From Candidatus Eiseniibacteriota bacterium (lineage in GTDB: Bacteria > Eisenbacteria > RBG-16-71-46): a DNA stretch of 46,648 bases. The notes beneath the pieces are model-generated. The model worked only from the letters and a program-made list of their open reading frames with translations, ran no database searches and was not told where the DNA came from. The translations under genes were made by a program, and so were the position numbers. Shown here one piece after another: positions 6,798 to 19,305 of this stretch (the stretch's first letter is position 1; each line of letters starts with the position of its first letter). The DNA lies in assembly GCA_038231135.1 (NCBI GenBank), contig JBBRLX010000034.1:1-46648 (forward strand), read 5' to 3'.

Positions 6798-7787
6798 TTA
6801 TCGGTACAGGCTCTTGATCTGCCCCCAACTCGCGGACCTGGTGGGCGTGGATGACTGGCTGAACTTTTGAATGCGATGGTTTCCCGTATCCGCAACATAA
6901 ACGTTTCCGCCCGCATCTACCGCCACGCTGACCGGGTAATCGAACTGACCATTGCCAGTGCCATATTTGCCCCACAGAGCGATGTAAGCGCCGCCGCTTG
7001 TGAACATCTGAATGCGGCTATTGCCATAATCCGCAACATAGACAATGCCGGCCGCATCTACTGCCACGCCCATGGGCGAGTTGAATTGCCCGTCGCCAGT
7101 GCCGTACGAGCCCCACTGCGTGACGTAAGTGCCGTCGCCGGTAAACTTCTGGATGCGGTGGTTGTCGGAGTCCGCCACATAGACATTGCCGCTCCCATCA
7201 ACCGCAATGCCATACGGGTGCTGGAACTCACCGTTTCCGCTGCCATTGGTCCCCCACTTGCGGAGGTAGTTGCCTCCGCTGGTGAAGACCTGGACACGCT
7301 GGTTGCCTTGCTCGGCCACGAACACATCGCCATTAACATCCACAGCGACCCCGGACGGGTACTGGAACTGTCCATCCTCGGTTCCAAACGTCCCCCACTT
7401 GGCGAGATAGGTGCCGTTGCTGGAGAACTTCTGAACGGAATGGCCGCCCGAATCGGCAACGTAGACGTTGCCGTCGAAATCCACCGCCACACCATCCGGC
7501 AACTCGAATTGGTCGCCCGAGTTGCCATTCGAACCCCACTGGGTCACATAGGCGCCACTGTTGTCGAACGATTGGATACGGAAATTGAATCTATCCGTCA
7601 CGTAGAGGTTTCCGCTGCCCACGGCCACGGCCCATGGATATTGAAACTGCCCGCTGGCGCTGCCATAGGTCCCCCACTGAGTGACATAGGTCGGAGCCTG
7701 TGCAACTGCGGCGGCGGGTAGCGTCGTCGCGAAGGTGAGCATGACGGAGACGATCAGGAAACGGTGATGATCCAGCTGCGAATGCAT
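6798..7787 (-). CDS. Secreted NHL-repeat (6-bladed beta-propeller) protein with C-terminal SWGQIKSLYR tail
   Basis: Six F-x-x-P-x-[GAS]-[VI]AV...YVAD..N.RIQ.F repeats; signal peptide ending AAAVA; GAGG RBS before ATG 7787. Confidence 0.9.
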   Translation of the reverse strand: MHSQLDHHRFLIVSVMLTFATTLPAAAVAQAPTYVTQWGTYGSASGQFQYPWAVAVGSGNLYVTDRFNFRIQSFDNSGAYVTQWGSNGNSGDQFELPDGVAVDFDGNVYVADSGGHSVQKFSSNGTYLAKWGTFGTEDGQFQYPSGVAVDVNGDVFVAEQGNQRVQVFTSGGNYLRKWGTNGSGNGEFQHPYGIAVDGSGNVYVADSDNHRIQKFTGDGTYVTQWGSYGTGDGQFNSPMGVAVDAAGIVYVADYGNSRIQMFTSGGAYIALWGKYGTGNGQFDYPVSVAVDAGGNVYVADTGNHRIQKFSQSSTPTRSASWGQIKSLYR

Positions 7788-7994
7788 TTTGAACGTCCTC
7801 GAGCGGGCGGAGTGAGGATGGTGTGCTCCAATTATAGACTTGGATCCCGAGTGGCCCGGTAGGAAATCAGGGCCGGGCGTTCCGAAGCGTTCGAATTCGT
7901 GTCCGCCGCACCCCGAGCCCCCACGTTGTCCTTCGCACCACACGAAGAGTCGGCACTACTCGACGTCGGGGATTCTCGCGATGCTGCTCTTCGC

Positions 7995-8243: not shown

Positions 8244-8861
8244 ATGAATTTGATGCTCATCTGCGCCACGTTGCTCGTGCTCTCGGGCTGCGCGCTCGCG
8301 TTCCTCCGTTCCCGCGAATCGGACGGCGCCGGCACGGGCCAGCTCGATCTGGCCCCCGAGGACGTCGCGCGGATGCCCGACCGCGTCGGCCTCGTCCGCG
8401 TCGACTCGACGTCCACACCGCTGCCCATGGCGATCCTGTCGATCTCCGGCGAGCTCGAATCCCAGGGGTTCGAGGACGGTGGCACGTTCGCGTTCGAAGG
8501 CCTGCCGGGAGTCCGCATGCGCCTGCTCGCGAATCCGTCGCAGTCGATGTACGCGGCGGTCTGGGAGCACCCCGCGGCCGGGCCGTGGGTCGAGTGCTGG
8601 ACCCAGTATCCCGGCGGCCGGAAGTGCACGTTCACGACGCTGACGGGCGCAGGCCTCGACGGCCGCCCCGGTCACACGGTGGTGCGCATGCCGGGAGCGA
8701 GACCGCTCGAGCTCTATCTCAAGGCCTGCACCGAGCGGCCGATGGGCGTGTTCATGCCGGCGACGGCGCAGCAGGCGCAGACCGAGTTCGAGAACGGCTA
8801 CATGATGTGGCGGGCGTGGCGCCGCGCCCAGGACCGCACGCGCCGCATCGAAGCCGCGTAG
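8244..8861 (+). CDS. Hypothetical membrane-anchored protein or lipoprotein
   Basis: AGGAGG RBS; N-terminal hydrophobic segment containing LSGC; host-like codon usage. Confidence 0.7.
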   Translation: MNLMLICATLLVLSGCALAFLRSRESDGAGTGQLDLAPEDVARMPDRVGLVRVDSTSTPLPMAILSISGELESQGFEDGGTFAFEGLPGVRMRLLANPSQSMYAAVWEHPAAGPWVECWTQYPGGRKCTFTTLTGAGLDGRPGHTVVRMPGARPLELYLKACTERPMGVFMPATAQQAQTEFENGYMMWRAWRRAQDRTRRIEAA

Positions 8862-8947: not shown

Positions 8948-11900
8948 CTACGGGGCAGTCTGCACCACCAGTTTCGCTTCGCCGGAACGCGACACGAGAT
9001 CGGGGTCGTACATGCCGCGCGCGGTGGCGGGCAGCGCCGTGAATCGGCCGCCGATCTCCGGGCGGATCAGGTATTCGATCGTGGTGTCGCCCGCGTCGAG
9101 GTTCTCGACGAAGAACACCGCCCGGTCGTCGCGCGATTCGGCGTGCGTGCCGTATGGCCATTCGGCACCGTCGGGCAGCAACTGCTCCACCTCGAACCCC
9201 GCGATCTGCGGGTCCTCGAGCGACAGGTAGTGCAGCGCCTTCGCCGACGTCAGCGTAAGGCGCACCAGCACCGTCTCGCCGATATGCAGCGCCTCCGCCG
9301 GGGCGAGCGTCGTGGTCAGGAACCGCGGCCGCCCGCGGCGGTCGGTGGTGCGCTCGGCGCGCAGGTATTCGCGTGTGACCGTGAGCCCGGACGCGTGCGT
9401 CGCGGGACCGGGGCTCGGCACCAGGGCGCGCGCGGACCACGACCACCAGGTCGTCAGCGCACCGTCGTGCGCGATCGTGAGCCGGTTGTCGCCGGCCTTG
9501 AGCTTGGTGCCGTCGAGCGTGACGCGCGCCGGCGGCGCGAACACGTCGGCCGGGCCGATGCGCCGCTGGAGCACATGAGCGCCGTTCCAGTCCACGCGCA
9601 CGCCGCCCGTCGCGCGCATCTCGGCCGCGTGCGCTCCCACGTATTCAGCGAGCGCCTGCGCCACGGGTGCGGTCTCGCGCGTGGAGCGCCACCACGGGCC
9701 GGTGCGATGGCGCATCAGCCACTGCACGACCTCGGTGGCGCCACGCTCCTGCGGCCGCACTGCGACCAGCGCGCCCAGCGCGTAGCCGGTGTTCGACAGG
9801 TCGCCGCCCCACCATGAATCACCGGCCTCCGGATCCACGTTCCAGTGCAGGCCGCCCCCGTCATGCGCCGCGCGTTTCATGAGCGCGTCGAGCAGCGCGC
9901 CCGCCTCGGCTTTGGCGCCCAGCTCCGCATGCAGGCGGGCCGCCAGCGCCAGCCCGGCATTGCCGAGCGCGTCCGGCGCGGACCGCAGCGTGAGCGCGAC
10001 TTCGTCGAGCCGCTCGCGCACCCCGGCGAACCGGTCCTTGGCCCGCGGCAGCTTCGTCAGCGCCACGAGATGCGCGCATACATACGCCTCGGCATCGGGC
10101 GTGCGCGCCTCCGCGAAGATCCGCGGCAGCGCCTGCACCGCACGGTCGAGCGCGCCGTCCGAGCCCTCGGGCGCCACGCCCGCGAGCACCGCCCGCGACA
10201 CGGCGTCGATCGCGAGTGCGGTCAGGTACGGGTCCATCTCGCCTTCCTGCCACCAGCCCCAGCCACCGTCCGATTGCTGGAGGCTCGACAGATGCTCGAG
10301 GTGACGCAGCAGTTTCTGTTTCACCTCCTGACCCTGGGGCGTCACCGCGCCGTCGGGGCCGATCGCGGCGAGGAACGCGCTGGCGGCGAGGATCGCGTTC
10401 GAGGTCTGCTCTGTGCAGCCGTACTCGTACACGAGCAATTCGTTCACCGCGAGCGCCGTCGCGGCGGCCGGGGACGGGGCGAAGTCGATGGTAACCGAAC
10501 TGCCCGCGCGCACCAGATCGCCCGGCAGCGGCACCGTCACCGTGGTCGTGGCGCCCTGGGCGACGCCGGCCGCGGCCGGCGTGAGCGGCACCGCGCGCGC
10601 GTGCACCGGCACCCGCACCTCGAGCGCGTCGCGGTCGGAGTTCGCGCGCGCGCGGAACGTGAACACTGCGTCCTCCGCGGTGGCGTCGCGGCCCGGCTCC
10701 GGAATCTGCACCGCCCATTCGCGGCGCGATTCGCCCTGGCGGGCGATCTGCGTGCGAGCGGTGTTGGGCCCTGTGAGTTTCGCACCCGTGGCCGCAACCG
10801 ATTCCTCGACGTCGGTCAGCGCCGCGGCGCTGCGGTTCGTCACCACCGACACCAGGCTGGCCGCGTCGCCCGCGATGAAGAACCTGGGGCCGGCAAGCCG
10901 CGCCACCACGTCCTTCGTTACAGTGGTCTTCGTCACCGCCTTGCCGACACGGGTGTCGAGCGTGGCGCCGCGGCTCGTGAACCGCCACGTCGTGAGGTTG
11001 TCAGGATACCGGAACCCCACACCCCCGCGGCCCGATGCATCGGTCAGCACCGTCGGGTTCCAGTAGGCGACATCCCGGAAGTTCCTCCGTACCTCGTCAC
11101 GTTCGCCCTTGTTCGCGCCGCCGTAGTAGAGCACCGGGAACGACACCACGGTCGTCACCCAGTTCGGGCGGCGGCCGTAGAACACCGCGTGCGGGTCGGG
11201 AGTGTCGTCCGGCCGCAGCGAATACAGCGCCTCGTCGACGACGCCCAGCGACACCTCGGCCGCGAGCGGCGCCCCCAAGCCGTCGGTGGTGCGGATGCTC
11301 ACCATGGTCGAGTCGCCCGGCCGCGCCGTGGTGCGGTCCGGCGTCAGCTCGATCTTGAGATCGTGGCGGCCGGCCTCGATCGGCAACTCGAGCACGCGCG
11401 AATGCACCTCCATGCCGCGGCGCACGTGCAGCGCGACGAACACGTTCGGCGCCCACTCCGCGCGGATCGGCAGCGCCACCAGCCCCGAATTGCCGGTCAG
11501 GTGCACGATGCGGCGCTCGAGCAGGTCCCGGCCCTCGACGGACACCAGCACCGTGGCGTTCTTGACGTCGGTGTTCACGAGCACGCGCGCGGTGTCGCCG
11601 CTGGCGTAACGCGCGCGGTCGGCGAACGCCTCCAGCGCGGGGTAGCGGTAGGCGAAGCTGGCCACGTTCGCGTCGTAGGCCCACGCGGAGGACTCGGCGG
11701 TGATGCGGTTCCCCTTCGAATCCTCGGCACGCGCCCGCACGATGAGCCGCCCGGCCCGCGCCGGGGAGGGCGTGAGTGACAGCCGCGCGCGGCCGAGCGA
11801 GTCCGTGGTCACGACCTGCGATGCGAGCGGCCGCGACGCGGCGGTGTAGCGGCGCTCGAGTGGGTTCCACGCCTCCTGATCGAGCTCCACGGTGACCGAC

Positions 11901-14296
11901 GCGAGCACCGGCTTGTCGGTGTGATCGCGCGTCGTCACCTCGATCGGCACCGGACGCCCGACCGGCACCACGTACGCGAGCGGCCGCACAGCCACGGTGA
12001 ACAGCCCGCGCCCCATGATCGCGCTGCCGCGTCCGCTCACGACGCGGTTCGATGGGTCGACGACCTCGACCTCGAGCGTGAGCCGCCGGTCGTAGGTCAC
12101 GCGCTCGGGGACGAACGACATCTCGGCGCGGCCGTCGAGGTCCGTGCGCGTCTCGCCGGTCTTGAGCACGCGGCCGTAGCCGGCCGGCGCGCCGTCACCG
12201 TCCTCCGATTCGCCCTCGTCCTCGCCGTCGCCCGAAGTGGCGCCGGCGCCGGACAGCCGGGCCTCGAACAGGTTGTAGCGCACCGCGGCGCCGAACACCG
12301 GCGCGCCGAAGAAGTACGTGGCCGCGATGCGGAACCGCACCTCGTCGCCGTTCACGTACACCGCGCGGTCCGGCGTCACCTCGACCTGGAACTCGGGTTT
12401 GCGATACTCCTGCACCGCGATCGTCGCCGTGGCGCTCGACGCGCCGACCGACGCGTGCAGCGACCAGTCGCCGAGCGCGACGTCGGCCGGCAGCGTGACC
12501 GAGCCGTCGGCCGCACCGCGCGCCGACACGTTCGCCATACCCACCGGGATCACGGCCCCGCCCGGACCCGTCAGTTCGACGCGCGCCGTAAGGGCGTCGG
12601 GCAGCGCCCAGCCGCCGGCGGGCGTGGACTTGCGCGCGAACAGCTTCCAGTTCACGACGTGGCCCGGGCGGTAGATCGGCCGGTCGGTGTAGAGGAACGC
12701 CTGGTCGCCGCCCTGGCTCGCGGCGGCGGCGATCGGCGCGTCCGCGACCGCGATCCCGCTCGTGACGCTCACCGCCACCACGCGCAGCCGGGCGCCGGGG
12801 CCGGCGTTCGCGATCAACGCGATGCCGTCGGCATCGGTGTCGACCGCGTCGCGCCGCGACTCGGCGACCGCGGTCGTCCAGCCCTTGCCGTTCTCCGACG
12901 GCGGCACCGGCTGCCGGATGACGAACACCCGGGCATCGGTCACGGGACGCCCGTCGCGCAACGTGGCCGCCGACACCCACACCTGACTCGGCGAGCGCTT
13001 CACGATCAGGCCGAGGTCGGTGACGAAGAACAGCGCGCGTCGCTCGACCGCACCCGCGCGGCCGCGCAGCAGGTACGCGCCCGGCGGCAGCGCGTGCGGC
13101 AGCGGCAGCTCCTCCTCGCGCCACGACCAGTCCGGGCCGGCGGCGGGGCTGTGCTGCCAGCGCTCGGGGCTCGTGAGCCCGCTGGTGTCGGAGCTGAGCA
13201 CGTAACGGCGGAAGTCGCCGGCGGGGTTCAGCAACTCGGGCGTCGGGATGTAGTACAACGCGAGATCGATGGTGCCAGTGCGGAACGACCTCAGCCCGAG
13301 CTTGGGCACCACGTTCGGCACGAACGCCTCGCGTTCGAGCACGAACGAGAACTCGACCTCCCGCGGCGTGACCGTGAACGCCGGCACGTCGCGCGCATCG
13401 CCTTCGCGCACCGTGACCGGCGCGGCCGCGCGCGCCGGCAGGAAGCCCTCGTGGCTGGTCTCGAGGCGGTAGCGGCCGGCGATCAGGTCGCCAATCGCGT
13501 ACGAGCCGTCGGCCCCGCTGGTGGCCACCTGCTCGGACGGGCCGCGTGCCGTGATCGTGATGCCGGGGACGCCGGTGCCGTCCGCGAGCCGCACGACGCC
13601 CGACAGCGACGCCGGGCGGCCGAGCTGGATGGGCGCGGTCGTGGTCTCGCCGCGCCGCACCGCGAGCCGCCGCACTTCAGTGGTGCGCAGCCCCGGAGCA
13701 TCGACCACGGCCGTCCAGTAACCGGCGCCAAGACCCTCGAAGCGCGCGGCGCCCTGGGCGTCGGTGAATCGTGGCGCCGGCGGCGCCTGGAAGCCTTCCC
13801 ACCACGTCGCGCCGCGCTCGCTCTGGAGCTGCACGCGGGCGTTCGCGACCGGCGCGCGCCCGTCGGTGCGCGTGGCCTTGACGAGCAGCATGCCGGCGCG
13901 GTCGAGCGGGATCACCAGCGCCGCGGTGCGCTGCGTCGCGGGAATCTGCCAGCCGCCGAGCACGTAGTCGGCGTAGCCCGCGGCGCCGACGGTCAGCGTG
14001 TAGTAGCGATCCGACGAAACATCGTCGATGCCGAACTCGCCCTGCTTGTTCGTGTGCGCGCGATGATAGCCCTGGCCGCCGTTGGTGTTCGCCAGCTCGA
14101 CCTCGGCGTCCGGGATCGGCTTCTGGGAATCGGAATCGACGACGCGCCCGCTCAGCCGCGTGACGGCCGCCGTGGCGGGCGCGGGAGCGAACGTGAGACT
14201 CGCGAGCGCCACGCCCAGCGCCGGGAGCAGCAGTGCCAGGCGGGTCCGCGCCGGCCACCCCCGGCGGCACGGGCTCGTTCCATAAGATCGCGTCAT
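8948..14296 (-). CDS. Bacterial alpha-2-macroglobulin family protein (~1780 aa) with N-terminal carboxypeptidase-regulatory-like Ig domains
   Basis: FLYTDRPIYRPG and QEYRKPEF (MG domains), VSLGVVDEA, RRNFRDVAYWNP, YPDNLTTW, thioester YGCTEQT (10406-10417), QQSDGGWGWW, RGMYDPD; signal peptide; ATG 14296 overlaps the upstream stop (ATGA). Confidence 0.93.
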   Translation of the reverse strand: MTRSYGTSPCRRGWPARTRLALLLPALGVALASLTFAPAPATAAVTRLSGRVVDSDSQKPIPDAEVELANTNGGQGYHRAHTNKQGEFGIDDVSSDRYYTLTVGAAGYADYVLGGWQIPATQRTAALVIPLDRAGMLLVKATRTDGRAPVANARVQLQSERGATWWEGFQAPPAPRFTDAQGAARFEGLGAGYWTAVVDAPGLRTTEVRRLAVRRGETTTAPIQLGRPASLSGVVRLADGTGVPGITITARGPSEQVATSGADGSYAIGDLIAGRYRLETSHEGFLPARAAAPVTVREGDARDVPAFTVTPREVEFSFVLEREAFVPNVVPKLGLRSFRTGTIDLALYYIPTPELLNPAGDFRRYVLSSDTSGLTSPERWQHSPAAGPDWSWREEELPLPHALPPGAYLLRGRAGAVERRALFFVTDLGLIVKRSPSQVWVSAATLRDGRPVTDARVFVIRQPVPPSENGKGWTTAVAESRRDAVDTDADGIALIANAGPGARLRVVAVSVTSGIAVADAPIAAAASQGGDQAFLYTDRPIYRPGHVVNWKLFARKSTPAGGWALPDALTARVELTGPGGAVIPVGMANVSARGAADGSVTLPADVALGDWSLHASVGASSATATIAVQEYRKPEFQVEVTPDRAVYVNGDEVRFRIAATYFFGAPVFGAAVRYNLFEARLSGAGATSGDGEDEGESEDGDGAPAGYGRVLKTGETRTDLDGRAEMSFVPERVTYDRRLTLEVEVVDPSNRVVSGRGSAIMGRGLFTVAVRPLAYVVPVGRPVPIEVTTRDHTDKPVLASVTVELDQEAWNPLERRYTAASRPLASQVVTTDSLGRARLSLTPSPARAGRLIVRARAEDSKGNRITAESSAWAYDANVASFAYRYPALEAFADRARYASGDTARVLVNTDVKNATVLVSVEGRDLLERRIVHLTGNSGLVALPIRAEWAPNVFVALHVRRGMEVHSRVLELPIEAGRHDLKIELTPDRTTARPGDSTMVSIRTTDGLGAPLAAEVSLGVVDEALYSLRPDDTPDPHAVFYGRRPNWVTTVVSFPVLYYGGANKGERDEVRRNFRDVAYWNPTVLTDASGRGGVGFRYPDNLTTWRFTSRGATLDTRVGKAVTKTTVTKDVVARLAGPRFFIAGDAASLVSVVTNRSAAALTDVEESVAATGAKLTGPNTARTQIARQGESRREWAVQIPEPGRDATAEDAVFTFRARANSDRDALEVRVPVHARAVPLTPAAAGVAQGATTTVTVPLPGDLVRAGSSVTIDFAPSPAAATALAVNELLVYEYGCTEQTSNAILAASAFLAAIGPDGAVTPQGQEVKQKLLRHLEHLSSLQQSDGGWGWWQEGEMDPYLTALAIDAVSRAVLAGVAPEGSDGALDRAVQALPRIFAEARTPDAEAYVCAHLVALTKLPRAKDRFAGVRERLDEVALTLRSAPDALGNAGLALAARLHAELGAKAEAGALLDALMKRAAHDGGGLHWNVDPEAGDSWWGGDLSNTGYALGALVAVRPQERGATEVVQWLMRHRTGPWWRSTRETAPVAQALAEYVGAHAAEMRATGGVRVDWNGAHVLQRRIGPADVFAPPARVTLDGTKLKAGDNRLTIAHDGALTTWWSWSARALVPSPGPATHASGLTVTREYLRAERTTDRRGRPRFLTTTLAPAEALHIGETVLVRLTLTSAKALHYLSLEDPQIAGFEVEQLLPDGAEWPYGTHAESRDDRAVFFVENLDAGDTTIEYLIRPEIGGRFTALPATARGMYDPDLVSRSGEAKLVVQTAP

Positions 14297-14976
14297 TCGT
14301 CGTCCTTTGTGCGGGTAGCCCGGATTCGCGGCGGCAGCTCCGCCACGGTCGCCACGTCGAATCGCTCGAACGCCGCGTCGCGCGCGTCGGCGATCACGCC
14401 GATGCGTCGCGCCTCGCGCAACGCGTACGCCACGGTACGTGCCTCGCCCGGCAGGAACGCCACGCTGCCCGTGGAGCCGCGCACCAGCAGGCCCTCGCGG
14501 CCCGGCGCGATCGCCATGGGATCCGCGAGCGGCGTGCCCGGCCCCGCGAACGACAGCACGATGCGCAGCCCGTCCAGTTCCTCGCGGCGTACCGGCGGCC
14601 GGCGGCGGTCGGCCTGCAGCGCCAGCACGGCGAGCGCGCGCACCGTCCCGCCCAGGGTGCTTGCGAGCGGCACGTCGCTGCCCATGCACGCACGCGTCGT
14701 GCGCCCGTCGACGAGGCTCACGTACACGCCCACCGCCGCACCCGGCCACGCTGTGCCGCTGTCGGCGGCGGCCGGGATCGGGGCGGACGCCGGAGCTTCG
14801 TAGCCGTCGAAGTGCGCGAGCATCGCGGCGCGCGCCGACGCCAGCAGCGCCACCGCCGCGGGCGTGCGCACGAACGCGCGATAGGCGGCGAGCGGGTCGG
14901 CGCCGGCGCGTGCGTTCGGGGCGGCGAGCGTCGTCATCACGCTCAGCGCCACGATCGCGGCTCGCAGCGACCTCAT
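14293..14976 (-). CDS. AMMECR1-domain protein with predicted signal peptide
   Basis: GVYVSL...TRACMG (variant of LRGCIG), DRRRPPVRREEL (cf. DPRFPPV..EEL), GREGLLV...AFLPG; N-terminus MRSLRAAIVALSVMTTLAAPNARA. Confidence 0.82.
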   Translation of the reverse strand: MRSLRAAIVALSVMTTLAAPNARAGADPLAAYRAFVRTPAAVALLASARAAMLAHFDGYEAPASAPIPAAADSGTAWPGAAVGVYVSLVDGRTTRACMGSDVPLASTLGGTVRALAVLALQADRRRPPVRREELDGLRIVLSFAGPGTPLADPMAIAPGREGLLVRGSTGSVAFLPGEARTVAYALREARRIGVIADARDAAFERFDVATVAELPPRIRATRTKDDE

Positions 14977-15758
14977 GGCCCGGACTCCGGCCGCACGCGA
15001 GCGACCGGGTACACGTCGCGATGCACCAGCTCGCGGTCACGCTCCTCGCCGTCCACGCGGCGGATGCGGTACAGCTCGATCTCGCGCCCCGGCGCCCCGG
15101 ACTCGGCGTCCGCGCTCTCGTGCACCTCGGATTCCAGCTCGTAGGTGGCGTCCGCCGGCGACTCGCCCTCGAGCCGTGCCGTGAGGGTCGATCCCAGCAC
15201 CTCGATGCGCACGCGCACGCGCTGGTCCAGGTCGTTGCGCAGCGCGAGATCCTTGACGCCCCACGACACGGTCGCGTCCTGGCCGAGCGGAATGTAGTCG
15301 ACGGGCGTCGAGTGCCGGTGGCGCTGCGCCACGGACAGCCCGGATAGCAGGCCCGCCACGAACAGCGTCGAGGCCACCTGGCAGATGCCGCCGCCGGTCT
15401 GGAGCTGGCGCGACTCGCGCAGGATCACGGGCGCATCCACGAAGCCGCGTTCCGACGTGCGCGGACCGACGGTGCGGTTGAACGACAGCACGTCGCCGGG
15501 GGCGAGCACCACGCCGTCGATCGCGGCGCACGCCAGCCGGATGTTGTGAGTGCGCCCCGCGCCGCTGCCGGCGAGGGTCGTTGAGAACGAGCCGAGCGTG
15601 ACCGGAAACGCGTTCTCGCCGGGCGCCGCGCCGCTGGAATCCCTGACGGCTGCGCTTGGGTTCACGGCCGCGGACGCCGGTTGCGCGACGAGCCCCGCGA
15701 GGACGGCGATCGCGCACGTCACAAGGGTCACGCCGTGGGAGCGAGGCACGCGGGCCAT
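14973..15758 (-). CDS. VanW family protein, exported
   Basis: RTHNIRLA, IDGVVLAPGDVLSFNRTVGPRT..RGF, GGGICQVASTL, RHRHS..VDYIPLGQDATV...DL..RN; signal peptide; stop overlaps the AMMECR1 start. Confidence 0.9.
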   Translation of the reverse strand: MARVPRSHGVTLVTCAIAVLAGLVAQPASAAVNPSAAVRDSSGAAPGENAFPVTLGSFSTTLAGSGAGRTHNIRLACAAIDGVVLAPGDVLSFNRTVGPRTSERGFVDAPVILRESRQLQTGGGICQVASTLFVAGLLSGLSVAQRHRHSTPVDYIPLGQDATVSWGVKDLALRNDLDQRVRVRIEVLGSTLTARLEGESPADATYELESEVHESADAESGAPGREIELYRIRRVDGEERDRELVHRDVYPVARVRPESGP

Positions 15759-16344: not shown

Positions 16345-17223
16345 TCAGCCGTCGGCCGTGAGCAGCAACTCCTCCTTGGCGGGCGAGTCATCGGTGGCCT
16401 TGTCGTCGACGTACTTCATGCGGACCGATAGTGAAATGAGGGCCACCGTCACGCCGAACAGGCACACGATCGTGGCGCCCATCGGCCAGTCCCTGAGGTA
16501 CGACAGCACCGCACCCAGGATCGAGACCACGATCCCGATCGCCCATGCCCAGTAGAGTCGCGCCGGGCCCTTGCGGCCGAGCAGTGTGGCGCAGACGATC
16601 GGGACGATCAGGAACGAGAACACCGCGAGCACCCCGGACACCTTGACGGAACTCGTGACCACCAGGCCGAACGCCGCGTAGAACAGGAAGTCCCACTTCT
16701 TCACGGACAGGCCCGTCGCGCGCGCCTCCTTGGGGTGTTCCGAACACAGCGCGAGCTTCCGGTGGTTGAAGAACAGGAACGCACCCGCGATCACGTCGAT
16801 GGTGACCATCACCGCGATGTCCTTCCACGTCACCCAGCCCAGCGCCTCTCCGCTCAGTGCCCCGCTCACGTGCTCCGCTCCGTGGGGCGAATTCGACAGC
16901 ATCAGCAACGTCGCCGCCGTCGCCAGCGCGAACGAGATCCCGATGAACGCCTCCTGCAGCACCGAGTGTTCGCGGTCCCACAGGAAGCTGAACAGCGCGG
17001 CACCCAGCAGCGTGAAGCCGAACGACCAGTAGTACATGCTGGGATCATGCGGCTCGGCCCCCAGCAGGAAGGCCACGCTCTGGCCGAGTGCGGCGATCTG
17101 GGCCAGCGCCAGATCCACGAAGATCACTCCCCGCGCGAGCACGTGCCGGCCGAGCGCGGGCAGGATCAACACGAGCAGCAGGCATGCCAGCAGCGGCAGC
17201 GCCATGACTCCGAAGAAGTTCAT
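16345..17223 (-). CDS. Metal (Zn/Mn) ABC transporter permease, ZnuB/ABC-3 family
   Basis: GRHVLARGVIFVDLALAQIAALG, EAFIGI, GVLAVFSFLIVP, DWPMGATIV; multiple TM segments. Confidence 0.88.
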   Translation of the reverse strand: MNFFGVMALPLLACLLLVLILPALGRHVLARGVIFVDLALAQIAALGQSVAFLLGAEPHDPSMYYWSFGFTLLGAALFSFLWDREHSVLQEAFIGISFALATAATLLMLSNSPHGAEHVSGALSGEALGWVTWKDIAVMVTIDVIAGAFLFFNHRKLALCSEHPKEARATGLSVKKWDFLFYAAFGLVVTSSVKVSGVLAVFSFLIVPIVCATLLGRKGPARLYWAWAIGIVVSILGAVLSYLRDWPMGATIVCLFGVTVALISLSVRMKYVDDKATDDSPAKEELLLTADG

Positions 17224-18149
17224 TTCTGCCCCTCCGACTTGCCGGACAGCGCTCCGGCCATCGACGACACCATCACGTCGAACTTGGAGAACACGTCATC
17301 GGTGTGCGGCAGGCCCCCGGACTCGAGCGCAATCTCCACCGCCACTCCGCCGGCGCGCTTTGCGACCTGCTGGCTGGCGTCGGGGTTGTAGTACGGCTGG
17401 TACTCCACCACCTTGACGCCGGCCTTCTTCATCGCCTGAGCGAGATCGTCGATGTGGTGGGGCGTGGGAGGGATGCCCGGCTTGGGCTCCACCGTGCCGA
17501 ACAACTTCAGTCCGAACCGGTCGGCGAAATAGATGAAGTTCTTGTGATAGGCGACGATCGACGCCCCTTTGTACGGCTCGAGCTGCTTTTCCCATTTCGC
17601 CAGCGAGGCTTCCATCCTCTCGTCGAACGCCCTGGCATTCGCGGCATAGTCCGCCGCGTTCGCGGCATCGAGGTCCGAGAACACCCGGGCAAGATGGTCG
17701 GCCACGACCTCGAGCGCCTTGGGATCGGCGTAATAGTGCGGATTGCCGAGCGGATGCACGTCACCCTCGGCACGGCTCACCGTGCCGGACGGTTTTTCGA
17801 GCACGGTCACGCCTTCCGAGGCGTCCACGAACCCCTTCGCGCCGGGCTGGATCCTGGGATTGCGGCTGCCCGGCAGGACCAGCGGCAGCCAGCCGGTGTC
17901 GAGTTCGAGTCCCGTGGAGATGAACACGTCCGCGTGCTGGATTGCCTTCATCAGGCTGGGCTTGGCCGGAACGAAATGCGGGTCCTCGAAACCCCTGCAC
18001 AGGCTCTGGGCCGTCACGTGCTTCCCGCCGACGAACTGGGCGACGGAGGCGAGATCGGTCAGCGACGTCGCGACCTTCAGATCCGCGAACGCGGGCGCCG
18101 CCAGCAGGCCAGCCACCAATACCAACATGTATCGAATCAGCAACTTCAT
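17220..18149 (-). CDS. Metal ABC transporter substrate-binding protein, ZnuA/TroA family
   Basis: EDPHF, GDVHPLGNPHY, YHKNF.YF..RFG, EPKPGIPP; signal peptide; GGAGG RBS. Confidence 0.92.
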   Translation of the reverse strand: MKLLIRYMLVLVAGLLAAPAFADLKVATSLTDLASVAQFVGGKHVTAQSLCRGFEDPHFVPAKPSLMKAIQHADVFISTGLELDTGWLPLVLPGSRNPRIQPGAKGFVDASEGVTVLEKPSGTVSRAEGDVHPLGNPHYYADPKALEVVADHLARVFSDLDAANAADYAANARAFDERMEASLAKWEKQLEPYKGASIVAYHKNFIYFADRFGLKLFGTVEPKPGIPPTPHHIDDLAQAMKKAGVKVVEYQPYYNPDASQQVAKRAGGVAVEIALESGGLPHTDDVFSKFDVMVSSMAGALSGKSEGQK

Positions 18150-18210
18150 GGAATCCTCCGAAGTTTGAACCTTCATGAACGGTGCCGCGGTGGTTCGAAC
18201 CGGCGCGATC

Positions 18211-19305
18211 TCAGTACGCATGAGCCGGGTGGTATCCGATGGTGTAGCTCAGTTGAAGCGCGAGACGGTCGTCGGTCGGGTGGACGCCGGCGTCGGCCTT
18301 CGCGTGGCTGTACTCGAGCCTCACGAACGAGAACTCCGAGGGCGTCCACGCGAGGTTCACGGAACCCCGGGTCACCTTGCCGGCAATCGGATCGCCCGTG
18401 TCGTCGACCATGAAGTCCGTGAAGCTGTTGCGGGCCTGCTCGCCACGAACGCCCATCCACCAGATCTGCGACAGCCGATACTGGAACGACGCGTAGCCAC
18501 CGTCCTGCTCCCGCTGATAGGTCCCGCCCGCGGTCGAGCCCTTCTGGAGGTATTCGCTCTGCAGGATCCACCCGCGGCTGTTCGAGGCTCTCGCCGGCAC
18601 GTTGCGGATCGTCACGTCGGCGCCATACGCGTCGTGGCGGTTGCCGTCCTCACCACGTCCCTGCAGGATGGACTGGCCGATTTCCAGCGTCGTCGCGTCG
18701 TTCAGGTCGAACTGATTCTTCCAATGGCCCAGGTAAGGGACGTTGTCGTGCCGGTTGGAGCCGAGATCCAGCGGATGATCCCCATCGACGCGGGTTGCCT
18801 GATAGGCACCTCCCGTCACCTCGGAGAACCACGGCAACGGAGTGAGCCACGCGGCCTCCACGCCGGCGTCCTTGAAACCCTCCTCGCCGATGGTGTTGGC
18901 CATGACGATCGGAGCCTGGATGAACGGAAACGCGTGTGTATGGAGCAGGCCGTGCTTGCCGAACGTGCCGCGGATCTTCCCCAGCTTGAGCTGAATGCCG
19001 GGGATGCTGGTGCTGCGGACCCAGGCCTCCTCCGGGTCCACCGACCCGTCGCTCAGGAACACGATGTTGCTCGTGAACGTCCAGTACGGATCCACGACGG
19101 AGATCAGGCTGATCTCCGCATCGTCGAATCGCAGCCCATAGGGCTGATTCAGATTGTGGGCGGCCAGTCCGGAAAACAGCGCGTTCATCCCGATGGCCGG
19201 GTTTGCCAGGTTCGAGATCAACGATGATGTCTGAGCGATCGCAAATGACGGCGCGCACAGCAGCGCGGCGGACAGGCATGCAAGCGTGAGGAGTCTCATG
19301 CGCAT
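18211..19305 (-). CDS. Putative outer-membrane beta-barrel (metal-uptake porin/receptor-like)
   Basis: Signal peptide; NPAIG, EEAW, FGKHGLLHTHAFPFIQAP, alternating beta-strand pattern, SEFSFVRLEY, C-terminal IGYHPAHAY; upstream of the metal SBP gene. Confidence 0.75.
   Translation of the reverse strand: MRMRLLTLACLSAALLCAPSFAIAQTSSLISNLANPAIGMNALFSGLAAHNLNQPYGLRFDDAEISLISVVDPYWTFTSNIVFLSDGSVDPEEAWVRSTSIPGIQLKLGKIRGTFGKHGLLHTHAFPFIQAPIVMANTIGEEGFKDAGVEAAWLTPLPWFSEVTGGAYQATRVDGDHPLDLGSNRHDNVPYLGHWKNQFDLNDATTLEIGQSILQGRGEDGNRHDAYGADVTIRNVPARASNSRGWILQSEYLQKGSTAGGTYQREQDGGYASFQYRLSQIWWMGVRGEQARNSFTDFMVDDTGDPIAGKVTRGSVNLAWTPSEFSFVRLEYSHAKADAGVHPTDDRLALQLSYTIGYHPAHAY

Follow-up and report, generated by a model that had tools for sequence, protein, structure and literature searches.

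Bacterial alpha-2-macroglobulins (A2Ms) have been described as two operon types. As set out in the parts of the cited papers covered here, cleavage of the bait in such a protein uncovers a CxEQ thioester that then bonds with a lysine on the attacker, and the Escherichia coli protein ECAM has an inner-membrane anchor (PMC4498604); a trap-and-repair hypothesis has been proposed for the type I operon, and the Mag proteins bind and stabilize MagD (PMC5764988). MagD, a yfa/mag-type A2M, protects against peptidoglycan-targeting type VI secretion system (T6SS) effectors (PMC12663445), and DUF1175 is an inactive, peptidoglycan-binding NlpC/P60 family (PMC10318531). Here we describe an A2M gene with other partners, located on contig JBBRLX010000034.1 of the Candidatus Eiseniibacteriota assembly GCA_038231135.1, the 46,648 nucleotides of which are referred to as the window. 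It is preceded by a vanW gene and a gene for an apparently exported AMMECR1 protein. The vanW-AMMECR1-A2M unit is real, conserved among relatives and undescribed in the literature searched: no published description of the operon was found, as the initial annotation had suggested, and no literature linking macroglobulin, VanW and AMMECR1, with the comparative works of Budd 2004 and Burroughs 2019 and their supplements lying outside that search and possibly bearing on it.

Organization of the locus

The three genes and their junctions are:

15758-14973, minus strand: vanW, 261 amino acids (aa) counted from the ATG at 15758
14973-14976, minus strand: ATGA overlap of the vanW stop and the AMMECR1 start
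14976-14293, minus strand: AMMECR1 gene, 227 aa
14293-14296, minus strand: ATGA overlap of the AMMECR1 stop and the A2M start
14296-8948, minus strand: A2M gene, 1782 aa

The initial annotation had proposed a co-oriented trio joined by stop/start overlaps, with a signal-peptide-like N-terminus on every product. All three minus-strand open reading frames and both overlaps are present in the sequence, and each protein has a basic start and a hydrophobic core, with Ala-X-Ala closing the N-terminal stretch; a lipobox was seen in none of the three. The most hydrophobic 11-residue segment of VanW and of AMMECR1 falls within the first 25 residues, while that at the N-terminus of the A2M (residues 22-32, 2.42) ranks second, behind one in the TED domain (2.51). 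From these features and their conservation among homologues we infer that all three proteins are exported, via what may be cleavable Sec signals.

The host genome is 93% complete with a guanine-cytosine (GC) content of 69%, and carries eight matches to Omp85, so the organism is diderm. It has one match each for bMG10, PF01871 and VanW. Neither pbpC (searched as BiPBP_C) nor DUF1175 was found in this 93%-complete assembly, and none of DUF1175, DUF2138, DUF2300 and DUF2135 adjoins the trio, the genome-wide search having covered DUF1175 and SpoIID. The usual pbpC and yfa partners are thus missing beside the trio, in line with the initial annotation. The single SpoIID gene and the single Memo gene of the genome are each on another contig, unlinked to the trio. 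No match to a sigma-70 promoter or a minus-strand terminator was found in the region, which has little weight at 69% GC.

Conservation of the trio among relatives

Gene neighbourhoods were compared in 99 loci of close AMMECR1 relatives, made up of 69 metagenome contigs and the 30 best genome loci, including the host genome itself. These were chosen by similarity to the host AMMECR1 and are kin, partly redundant and mostly from one family. A vanW gene lies upstream of AMMECR1 in 91 of them, and the remaining eight stop at a contig edge. An A2M gene follows within 900 bp downstream in 86 and another 12 stop at a contig edge; in the last one (L081) the A2M was found 2.9 kb further downstream, behind an insertion of about that length (L081:8525-11481) in a single error-rich assembly. 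Both neighbours flank AMMECR1 in 78/99 loci, which bears out the adjacency expected by the initial annotation. Of 80 measurable homologous vanW-AMMECR1 junctions, 59 overlap by 4 bases, and the AMMECR1-A2M offset lies between -14 and +13 in 72 of 84, where offsets were taken from the start nearest the preceding stop, a choice that favours overlaps. A conserved fourth gene was considered and rejected, as in the comparison of 19 long regions no further gene recurs in more than 7.

Across the phylum, exported-type AMMECR1 occurs in 38 of 206 genomes, delimited by a clear score gap (E 6e-39 or better, the next genome being at 8.7e-23). These carry VanW in 35 cases and bMG10 in 37; for the three genomes that lack VanW, completeness is 63-78% and the gene sits at the edge of its contig. 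VanW itself was found in only 39 of the 206 genomes. Four of them lack the exported type: G104, where a contig end cuts the locus, G118, which has a different VanW, and G025 and G027 of family f2, in which a degenerate trio is found in another order:

L030:9163-15370 (G025): degenerate trio, order AMMECR1-A2M-VanW
L136:4764-10773 (G027): degenerate trio, order AMMECR1-A2M-VanW

All three genes are retained in this new order, so the link between them survives rearrangement, with AMMECR1 still ahead of the A2M. The f2 sequences are fast-evolving (branch lengths 1.6-1.7): the A2M is without CxEQ, AMMECR1 lacks DxR but has the Cys and LPGEART, and VanW retains Cys, His and Asp but not the Gln. The trio is likewise present in two genomes of family f18.

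Homologues with names, at 50-54% identity, mostly bear the label Candidatus Eisenbacteria, and one cluster is also labelled Tepidiformaceae. In the 201 genomes of the phylum of G206 (Polyangiaceae), the best 12 of 35 AMMECR1 matches are all canonical, and no VanW or A2M was found within about 1.5 kb on either flank of these 12. The exported AMMECR1 was not found in the plasmid searches, and a single-protein AMMECR1 search of genome contigs returned only three canonical Memo-type loci.

The apparently exported AMMECR1 protein

The features of the protein are as follows:

Residues 1-24/25: predicted Sec signal
Residue Cys97: in RACMG
Residues Asp123-x-Arg125: DxR motif
FLPGEART: with Glu178

The match to Pfam PF01871 has an E-value of 5.8e-14, and the AMMECR1 fold was confirmed by Foldseek (E 1e-10) and by a Z score of 12.5, with no other fold standing out. 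The motifs of the tandem RAGNYA-fold AMMECR1 family are present as RACMG and DRRR, while the aromatic position is not kept; RGChG and DxRa have been predicted to form the family's active site (PMC2034487, in the part covered). RxCxG and DxR occur in 120/120 close homologues and a hydrophobic N-terminus in 107 of the 116 that are at least 200 aa long. Cys97 is the single conserved cysteine of the mature chain.

A profile search revealed a second, far more diverse tier of relatives, whose named members include proteins of Armatimonadota and Geobacteraceae. Four positions, C97, G99, D123 and E178, do not vary among 64 diverse members hand-picked by their signal-like N-termini, at a mean column identity of 27%; the invariant Cys, Asp and Glu residues point to an enzyme, where the initial annotation had suggested an accessory factor. 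In a tree of 40 signal-bearing and 22 canonical proteins the two sets separate with a Shimodaira-Hasegawa-like approximate likelihood ratio test (SH-aLRT) value of 95; as the sets were picked by motif and N-terminus, the split confirms coherence only. Two divergent signal-bearing relatives (P0207 and P0268) have RACEG and keep PGEA, with no DxR and no Pfam match. One protein, P0209, is a 501-aa fusion of SpoIID to an AMMECR1 domain with the exported-clade motifs RACWG, DRRHPP and ILPGEART. Among the 20 longer or odd AMMECR1 matches scanned, VanW occurs in none and SpoIID in one; an alignment-based search for longer fused forms scored nothing, which is weak evidence, and no AMMECR1-VanW or AMMECR1-A2M fusion was found.

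Assignment to the AmmeMemoRadiSam system was rejected, with TIGR04335 scoring 39 against a threshold of 99 bits and the Memo gene present only on another contig. That Memo-like gene (G000:C25:52771-54279) stands alone, and no AMMECR1 or radical SAM motif was seen nearby.

The VanW protein

The features of the protein are:

Residues 1-30: predicted Sec signal
15276-15383, minus strand: predicted triad codons, Cys126 (GGGICQ), His149 (RHS) and Asp161 (GQDAT)

The Pfam match to PF04294 is strong (E 1e-44, 151.6 bits against a cut-off of 27); a partial G5 at the C-terminus falls below cut-off, the Pfam scan found no PG-binding-4 domain, and no relative of solved structure was found by sequence. 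The initial annotation had listed VanW as a family of unknown function, which is outdated: work of 2024 established VanW domains as L,D-transpeptidases that have a triad of Cys, His and Asp and make 3-3 cross-links by way of a thioacyl intermediate on the Cys (PMC11348318, in the part covered). The triad is invariant in aligned homologue segments (Cys126 in 79/79, His149 in 80/80 and Asp161 in 82/82), and in an alignment with VanW proteins of clostridia and Paenibacillus, C126, H149 and D161 fall on the GGGxCQ, HS and DA motifs. The triad Asp is probably D161 rather than D170, both being invariant in 57 close homologues. Judged by these motifs the host VanW is likely an L,D-transpeptidase, and membership of this family strengthens the cell-wall link of the unit.

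Identity with the VanW of vancomycin resistance was rejected (NF033128, 65.5 against 365 bits; no van genes among the scanned neighbours). The VanW of G118 (L135:9462-10322) differs in type, having Gly where D161 would stand, and is unlinked to an A2M.

The macroglobulin and its relatives

Pfam domains of the A2M comprise three CarboxypepD_reg stretches, MG2, MG3, A2M_BRD, A2M, TED and bMG10. Its main features are:

About residues 1-43: predicted Sec signal, no lipobox
13367-14155, minus strand: three N-terminal CarboxypepD_reg (prealbumin-like) domains, about residues 48-310
11087-11143, minus strand: bait-position loop SFPVLYYGGANKGERDEV, residues 1052-1069, with the conserved Lys1063
10406-10417, minus strand: thioester motif CTEQ, residues 1294-1297, with Y1290-x-Y1292 just before
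M1762-Y1763: thioester pocket partners, at the C-terminus

The CTEQ motif is intact, as initially annotated. Of 22 spanning homologue segments, 20 carry CxEQ, both misses coming from one frameshifted assembly, and so do 13/13 further segments that partly overlap the first set. Across 17 A2M sequences Y1290 and Y1763 are invariant and M1762 nearly so, corresponding to the protective Tyr/Met pocket described in the covered part of PMC4498604. A thioester bond and covalent capture of proteases would be expected from what is known of the family. A structure model of residues 630-1782 (predicted local distance difference test score 79, predicted template modelling score, pTM, 0.50) has its best Foldseek matches in E. 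coli ECAM (5a42; E 3e-51, at a pTM of only 0.50) and the Salmonella protein 4u48, both in the native state. The N-terminal CarboxypepD_reg domains are present in the degenerate f2 copies too. An acidic low-confidence loop, GDGEDEGESEDGDG (window 12179-12257, residues 680-706), lies in an MG domain and varies among homologues.

The bait loop is disordered in the model and has 17-18 residues, with a Lys in 21/21 distinct sequences and a column conservation of 0.81 as against 0.67 for the whole A2M. The bait-position segment is 64-65 residues long in 14 trio A2Ms, compared with 78 in YfhM, 85-94 in Deinococcota and 146-187 in four partner-less A2Ms. Lys and Gly-Gly occur also in the bait loops of pbpC-linked A2Ms, and GGKD is found in the bait of the two thioester-less f2 A2Ms. 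A second class of A2M of about 2050 aa, with a thioester (CSEQ), a long bait and no evident partner gene (L137:4515-10637, L138, L139 and L140), coexists with the trio in some genomes.

L150 and several nearly identical rows were excluded from the phylogenetic trees, which were built with FastTree and with IQ-TREE under LG+G4. A single group unites the A2Ms of the trio with the two degenerate f2 copies (support 99 in FastTree, 92 in IQ-TREE). Its sister group (98 and 90) consists of thioester A2Ms from Deinococcus and Meiothermus that are linked to DUF1175 and found at three plasmid loci:

L154:5888-11701: DUF1175-A2M-hypothetical locus
L155:2285-8673: DUF1175-A2M-hypothetical locus
L156:5746-11730: DUF1175-A2M-hypothetical locus

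In both trees the trio A2Ms fall apart from the pbpC-linked ones. A true pbpC adjoins nine other A2Ms of the phylum; BiPBP_C is over cut-off in 24 of the 206 genomes overall versus 0/38 of those with the trio. The 88 other genomes of family f1, whether they carry the trio or not, likewise show no pbpC over cut-off, and the absence of pbpC was rejected as proof of its substitution by VanW, since the whole family lacks it. The idea in the initial annotation that VanW takes the slot of PbpC stands as an analogy only, the nearest named relatives of the A2M sitting behind DUF1175/YfaT and not pbpC. Its broader claim of a distinct A2M operon is upheld by the conserved cell-wall enzyme and apparently exported AMMECR1 that accompany the A2M across relatives.

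Proposed function and alternatives

The reading we favour, to which we give an even chance, is that the trio forms one conserved, translationally coupled periplasmic trap-and-patch defence of the cell wall. The A2M would form a covalent trap for an enzyme cutting its short bait, and the short, conserved bait would select a few attackers, either wall hydrolases or specific proteases, instead of any protease. VanW would re-cross-link the damaged peptidoglycan by adding 3-3 cross-links. The exported AMMECR1 may be a cysteine enzyme acting through Cys97 on wall peptides (stem peptides or muropeptides), and would occupy the position of the peptidoglycan-binding YfaT/MagC (DUF1175) directly ahead of the A2M gene. 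We infer every one of these functional steps; precedents are the trap-and-repair idea for type I and the protection by MagD against wall-targeting T6SS effectors.

Several points weigh against this reading. The f2 A2Ms without CxEQ keep both partners, so the cohesion of the unit in that family does not depend on covalent trapping. VanW has no match in 54 of the 88 other family-f1 genomes, and the unit is thus dispensable. Since the trio genomes are kin, the counts given above show conservation and not independent origins. Absence of pbpC from trio genomes is confounded by lineage, as the other f1 genomes lack it as well, and an approximately unbiased (AU) test did not reject a forced clade of trio and pbpC-linked A2Ms (p 0.064) in a tree with long branches. 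According to the covered part of PMC11348318, activity was seen in only three of seven foreign VanW proteins and four gave no signal. The host genome already has two YkuD L,D-transpeptidase genes. The SpoIID fusion P0209 is one protein, with neither genomic context nor a visible signal peptide.

A bolder version of the favoured reading, which we consider quite improbable, is a wall-tethered suicide trap. VanW would put a peptidoglycan stem on the Lys of the bait loop (G-G-A-D-K-G), turning the bait into a bit of wall material and luring wall-cutting enzymes into the thioester cage, and AMMECR1, as a new class of cysteine peptidoglycan enzyme, would make or remove the link. If true, it would give the disease-linked AMMECR1 fold its first reaction and account for the ability of a macroglobulin to stop wall hydrolases.

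Among the alternatives, AMMECR1 might be dedicated to maturing or stabilizing the A2M. It would form, protect or recycle the thioester, or keep a complex together as MagB does, and VanW would be an independent repair enzyme. AMMECR1 always stands directly before the A2M, in both gene orders, its mature chain has one conserved Cys, f2 loses DxR together with CxEQ, and the binding and stabilization of MagD by Mag proteins (PMC5764988, in the part covered) offers a parallel. Type I A2Ms, however, have a thioester without such a partner, the joint loss may be coincidence as f2 is fast-evolving throughout, and the SpoIID fusion points to the wall and not to the thioester; we regard this explanation as unlikely.

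Unlikely too, and placed just behind it, is an anchoring machine in which VanW would tether the A2M, a soluble protein without lipidation, to peptidoglycan, for instance via the bait-loop Lys, and AMMECR1 would prime or release the link. Such a tether would suit an A2M without a lipobox, whereas ECAM sits on the inner membrane (PMC4498604, in the part covered), and a VanW with no wall-binding domains of its own; the Lys found in every bait, with GGKD even in the thioester-less f2 copies, could serve as its attachment site, and YkuD-type enzymes are known to tether proteins (PMC12729407, in the part covered). Against this, no protein tethering is reported for any VanW protein in the literature covered, Lys and Gly-Gly are shared with the baits of pbpC-linked A2Ms, and the idea is conjectural.

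A housekeeping role, with the A2M as a large scaffold in the periplasm on which the wall is remodelled in growth or stress, and trapping as a vestige, appears quite unlikely to us. It would agree with the retention of the unit in thioester-less f2 copies, with a bait that is short and conserved instead of variable, and with a wall-related neighbour in every A2M operon type, but family f1 keeps CxEQ and its pocket in essentially every copy, and patchy presence suits an accessory defence better than a core role. Co-transcription without shared function, that is, synteny inherited in one lineage, would fit the origin of most loci from one family but is very improbable, being largely refuted by the rearranged f2 copy with all three genes kept; the two f18 genomes with the trio and flanking genes that vary while the trio persists also speak against it.

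Neighbouring genes

Downstream of the trio and convergent with the A2M gene, a gene at window 8244-8861 (plus strand) encodes a 205-aa protein without a Pfam or NCBIfam match; among L016-L032 it is present only in the same-genus genome. At window 6798-7943 (minus strand) lies an NHL beta-propeller gene whose product has a signal-like N-terminus and the C-terminal tail SWGQIKSLYR, which we presume may be a lineage-specific sorting motif.

Upstream of the trio, a porin-like gene, ZnuA and an ABC-3 permease (window 16345-19305, minus strand) share its strand, and a small methyltransferase gene on the opposite strand sits between vanW and this block. The block lies near the trio only in L019 and L102.

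Comparison with described systems

The exported AMMECR1 has the fold and the RxCxG and DxR motifs in common with AmmeMemoRadiSam protein A (1zq7, 1vaj and 1wsc), but differs in a predicted signal peptide, in LPGEA(R/K)T instead of LPQV, in forming the separate clade noted above and in the lack of an adjacent Memo or radical SAM gene. The trio moves AMMECR1, with its predicted catalytic Cys and no reaction reported in the literature covered, out of an RNA-modification context and gives it candidate substrates in peptidoglycan peptides, in the bait loop and in the thioester.

With the VanW-family L,D-transpeptidases Ldt4 and Ldt5 of Clostridioides difficile the host VanW shares a PF04294 match over cut-off and the conserved Cys-His-Asp. 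Unlike these, it is a minimal single-domain protein without PG4 domains and with a predicted cleavable signal, and belongs to a diderm and to an A2M operon. The trio would thus place a minimal VanW L,D-transpeptidase in a diderm periplasm.

Like the type I systems (yfhM-pbpC of E. coli and Sa-A2M of Salmonella), the trio A2M has CxEQ with the Tyr/Met pocket and the A2M fold, and is coupled to a peptidoglycan cross-linking enzyme, if the predicted role of VanW is right; a protease trap would again be joined with wall chemistry. Its partners are a predicted VanW-type L,D-transpeptidase and AMMECR1 and not PBP1c, it has no lipobox and three N-terminal CarboxypepD_reg domains, and its bait segment is shorter than that of YfhM. 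With type II (yfaA-yfaT-yfaS-yfaQ-yfaP, and magABCDEF of Pseudomonas aeruginosa) it shares a multi-gene layout and a small wall-related protein directly before the A2M, whereas type II A2Ms lack the CxEQ that is present here as CTEQ. The DUF1175-A2M loci of Deinococcus and Meiothermus encode the nearest named relatives (27-30% identity over 70-78% of the query). Their thioester is likewise intact, but DUF1175 is in the place of AMMECR1, VanW is not adjacent, the match begins at residue 379, so the N-terminal domains of the trio A2M are not shared, and the bait is longer. The third gene of these loci, of about 200 aa, had no Pfam match in the two scanned.

An intact CxEQ in DUF1175-linked loci blurs the split between type I and type II. 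The function of AMMECR1 and the natural target of bacterial macroglobulins become testable with this trio, all three proteins of which are predicted to be soluble. Bacterial A2M operons thereby gain a third partner set, in which the thioester of type I is combined with a layout resembling type II.

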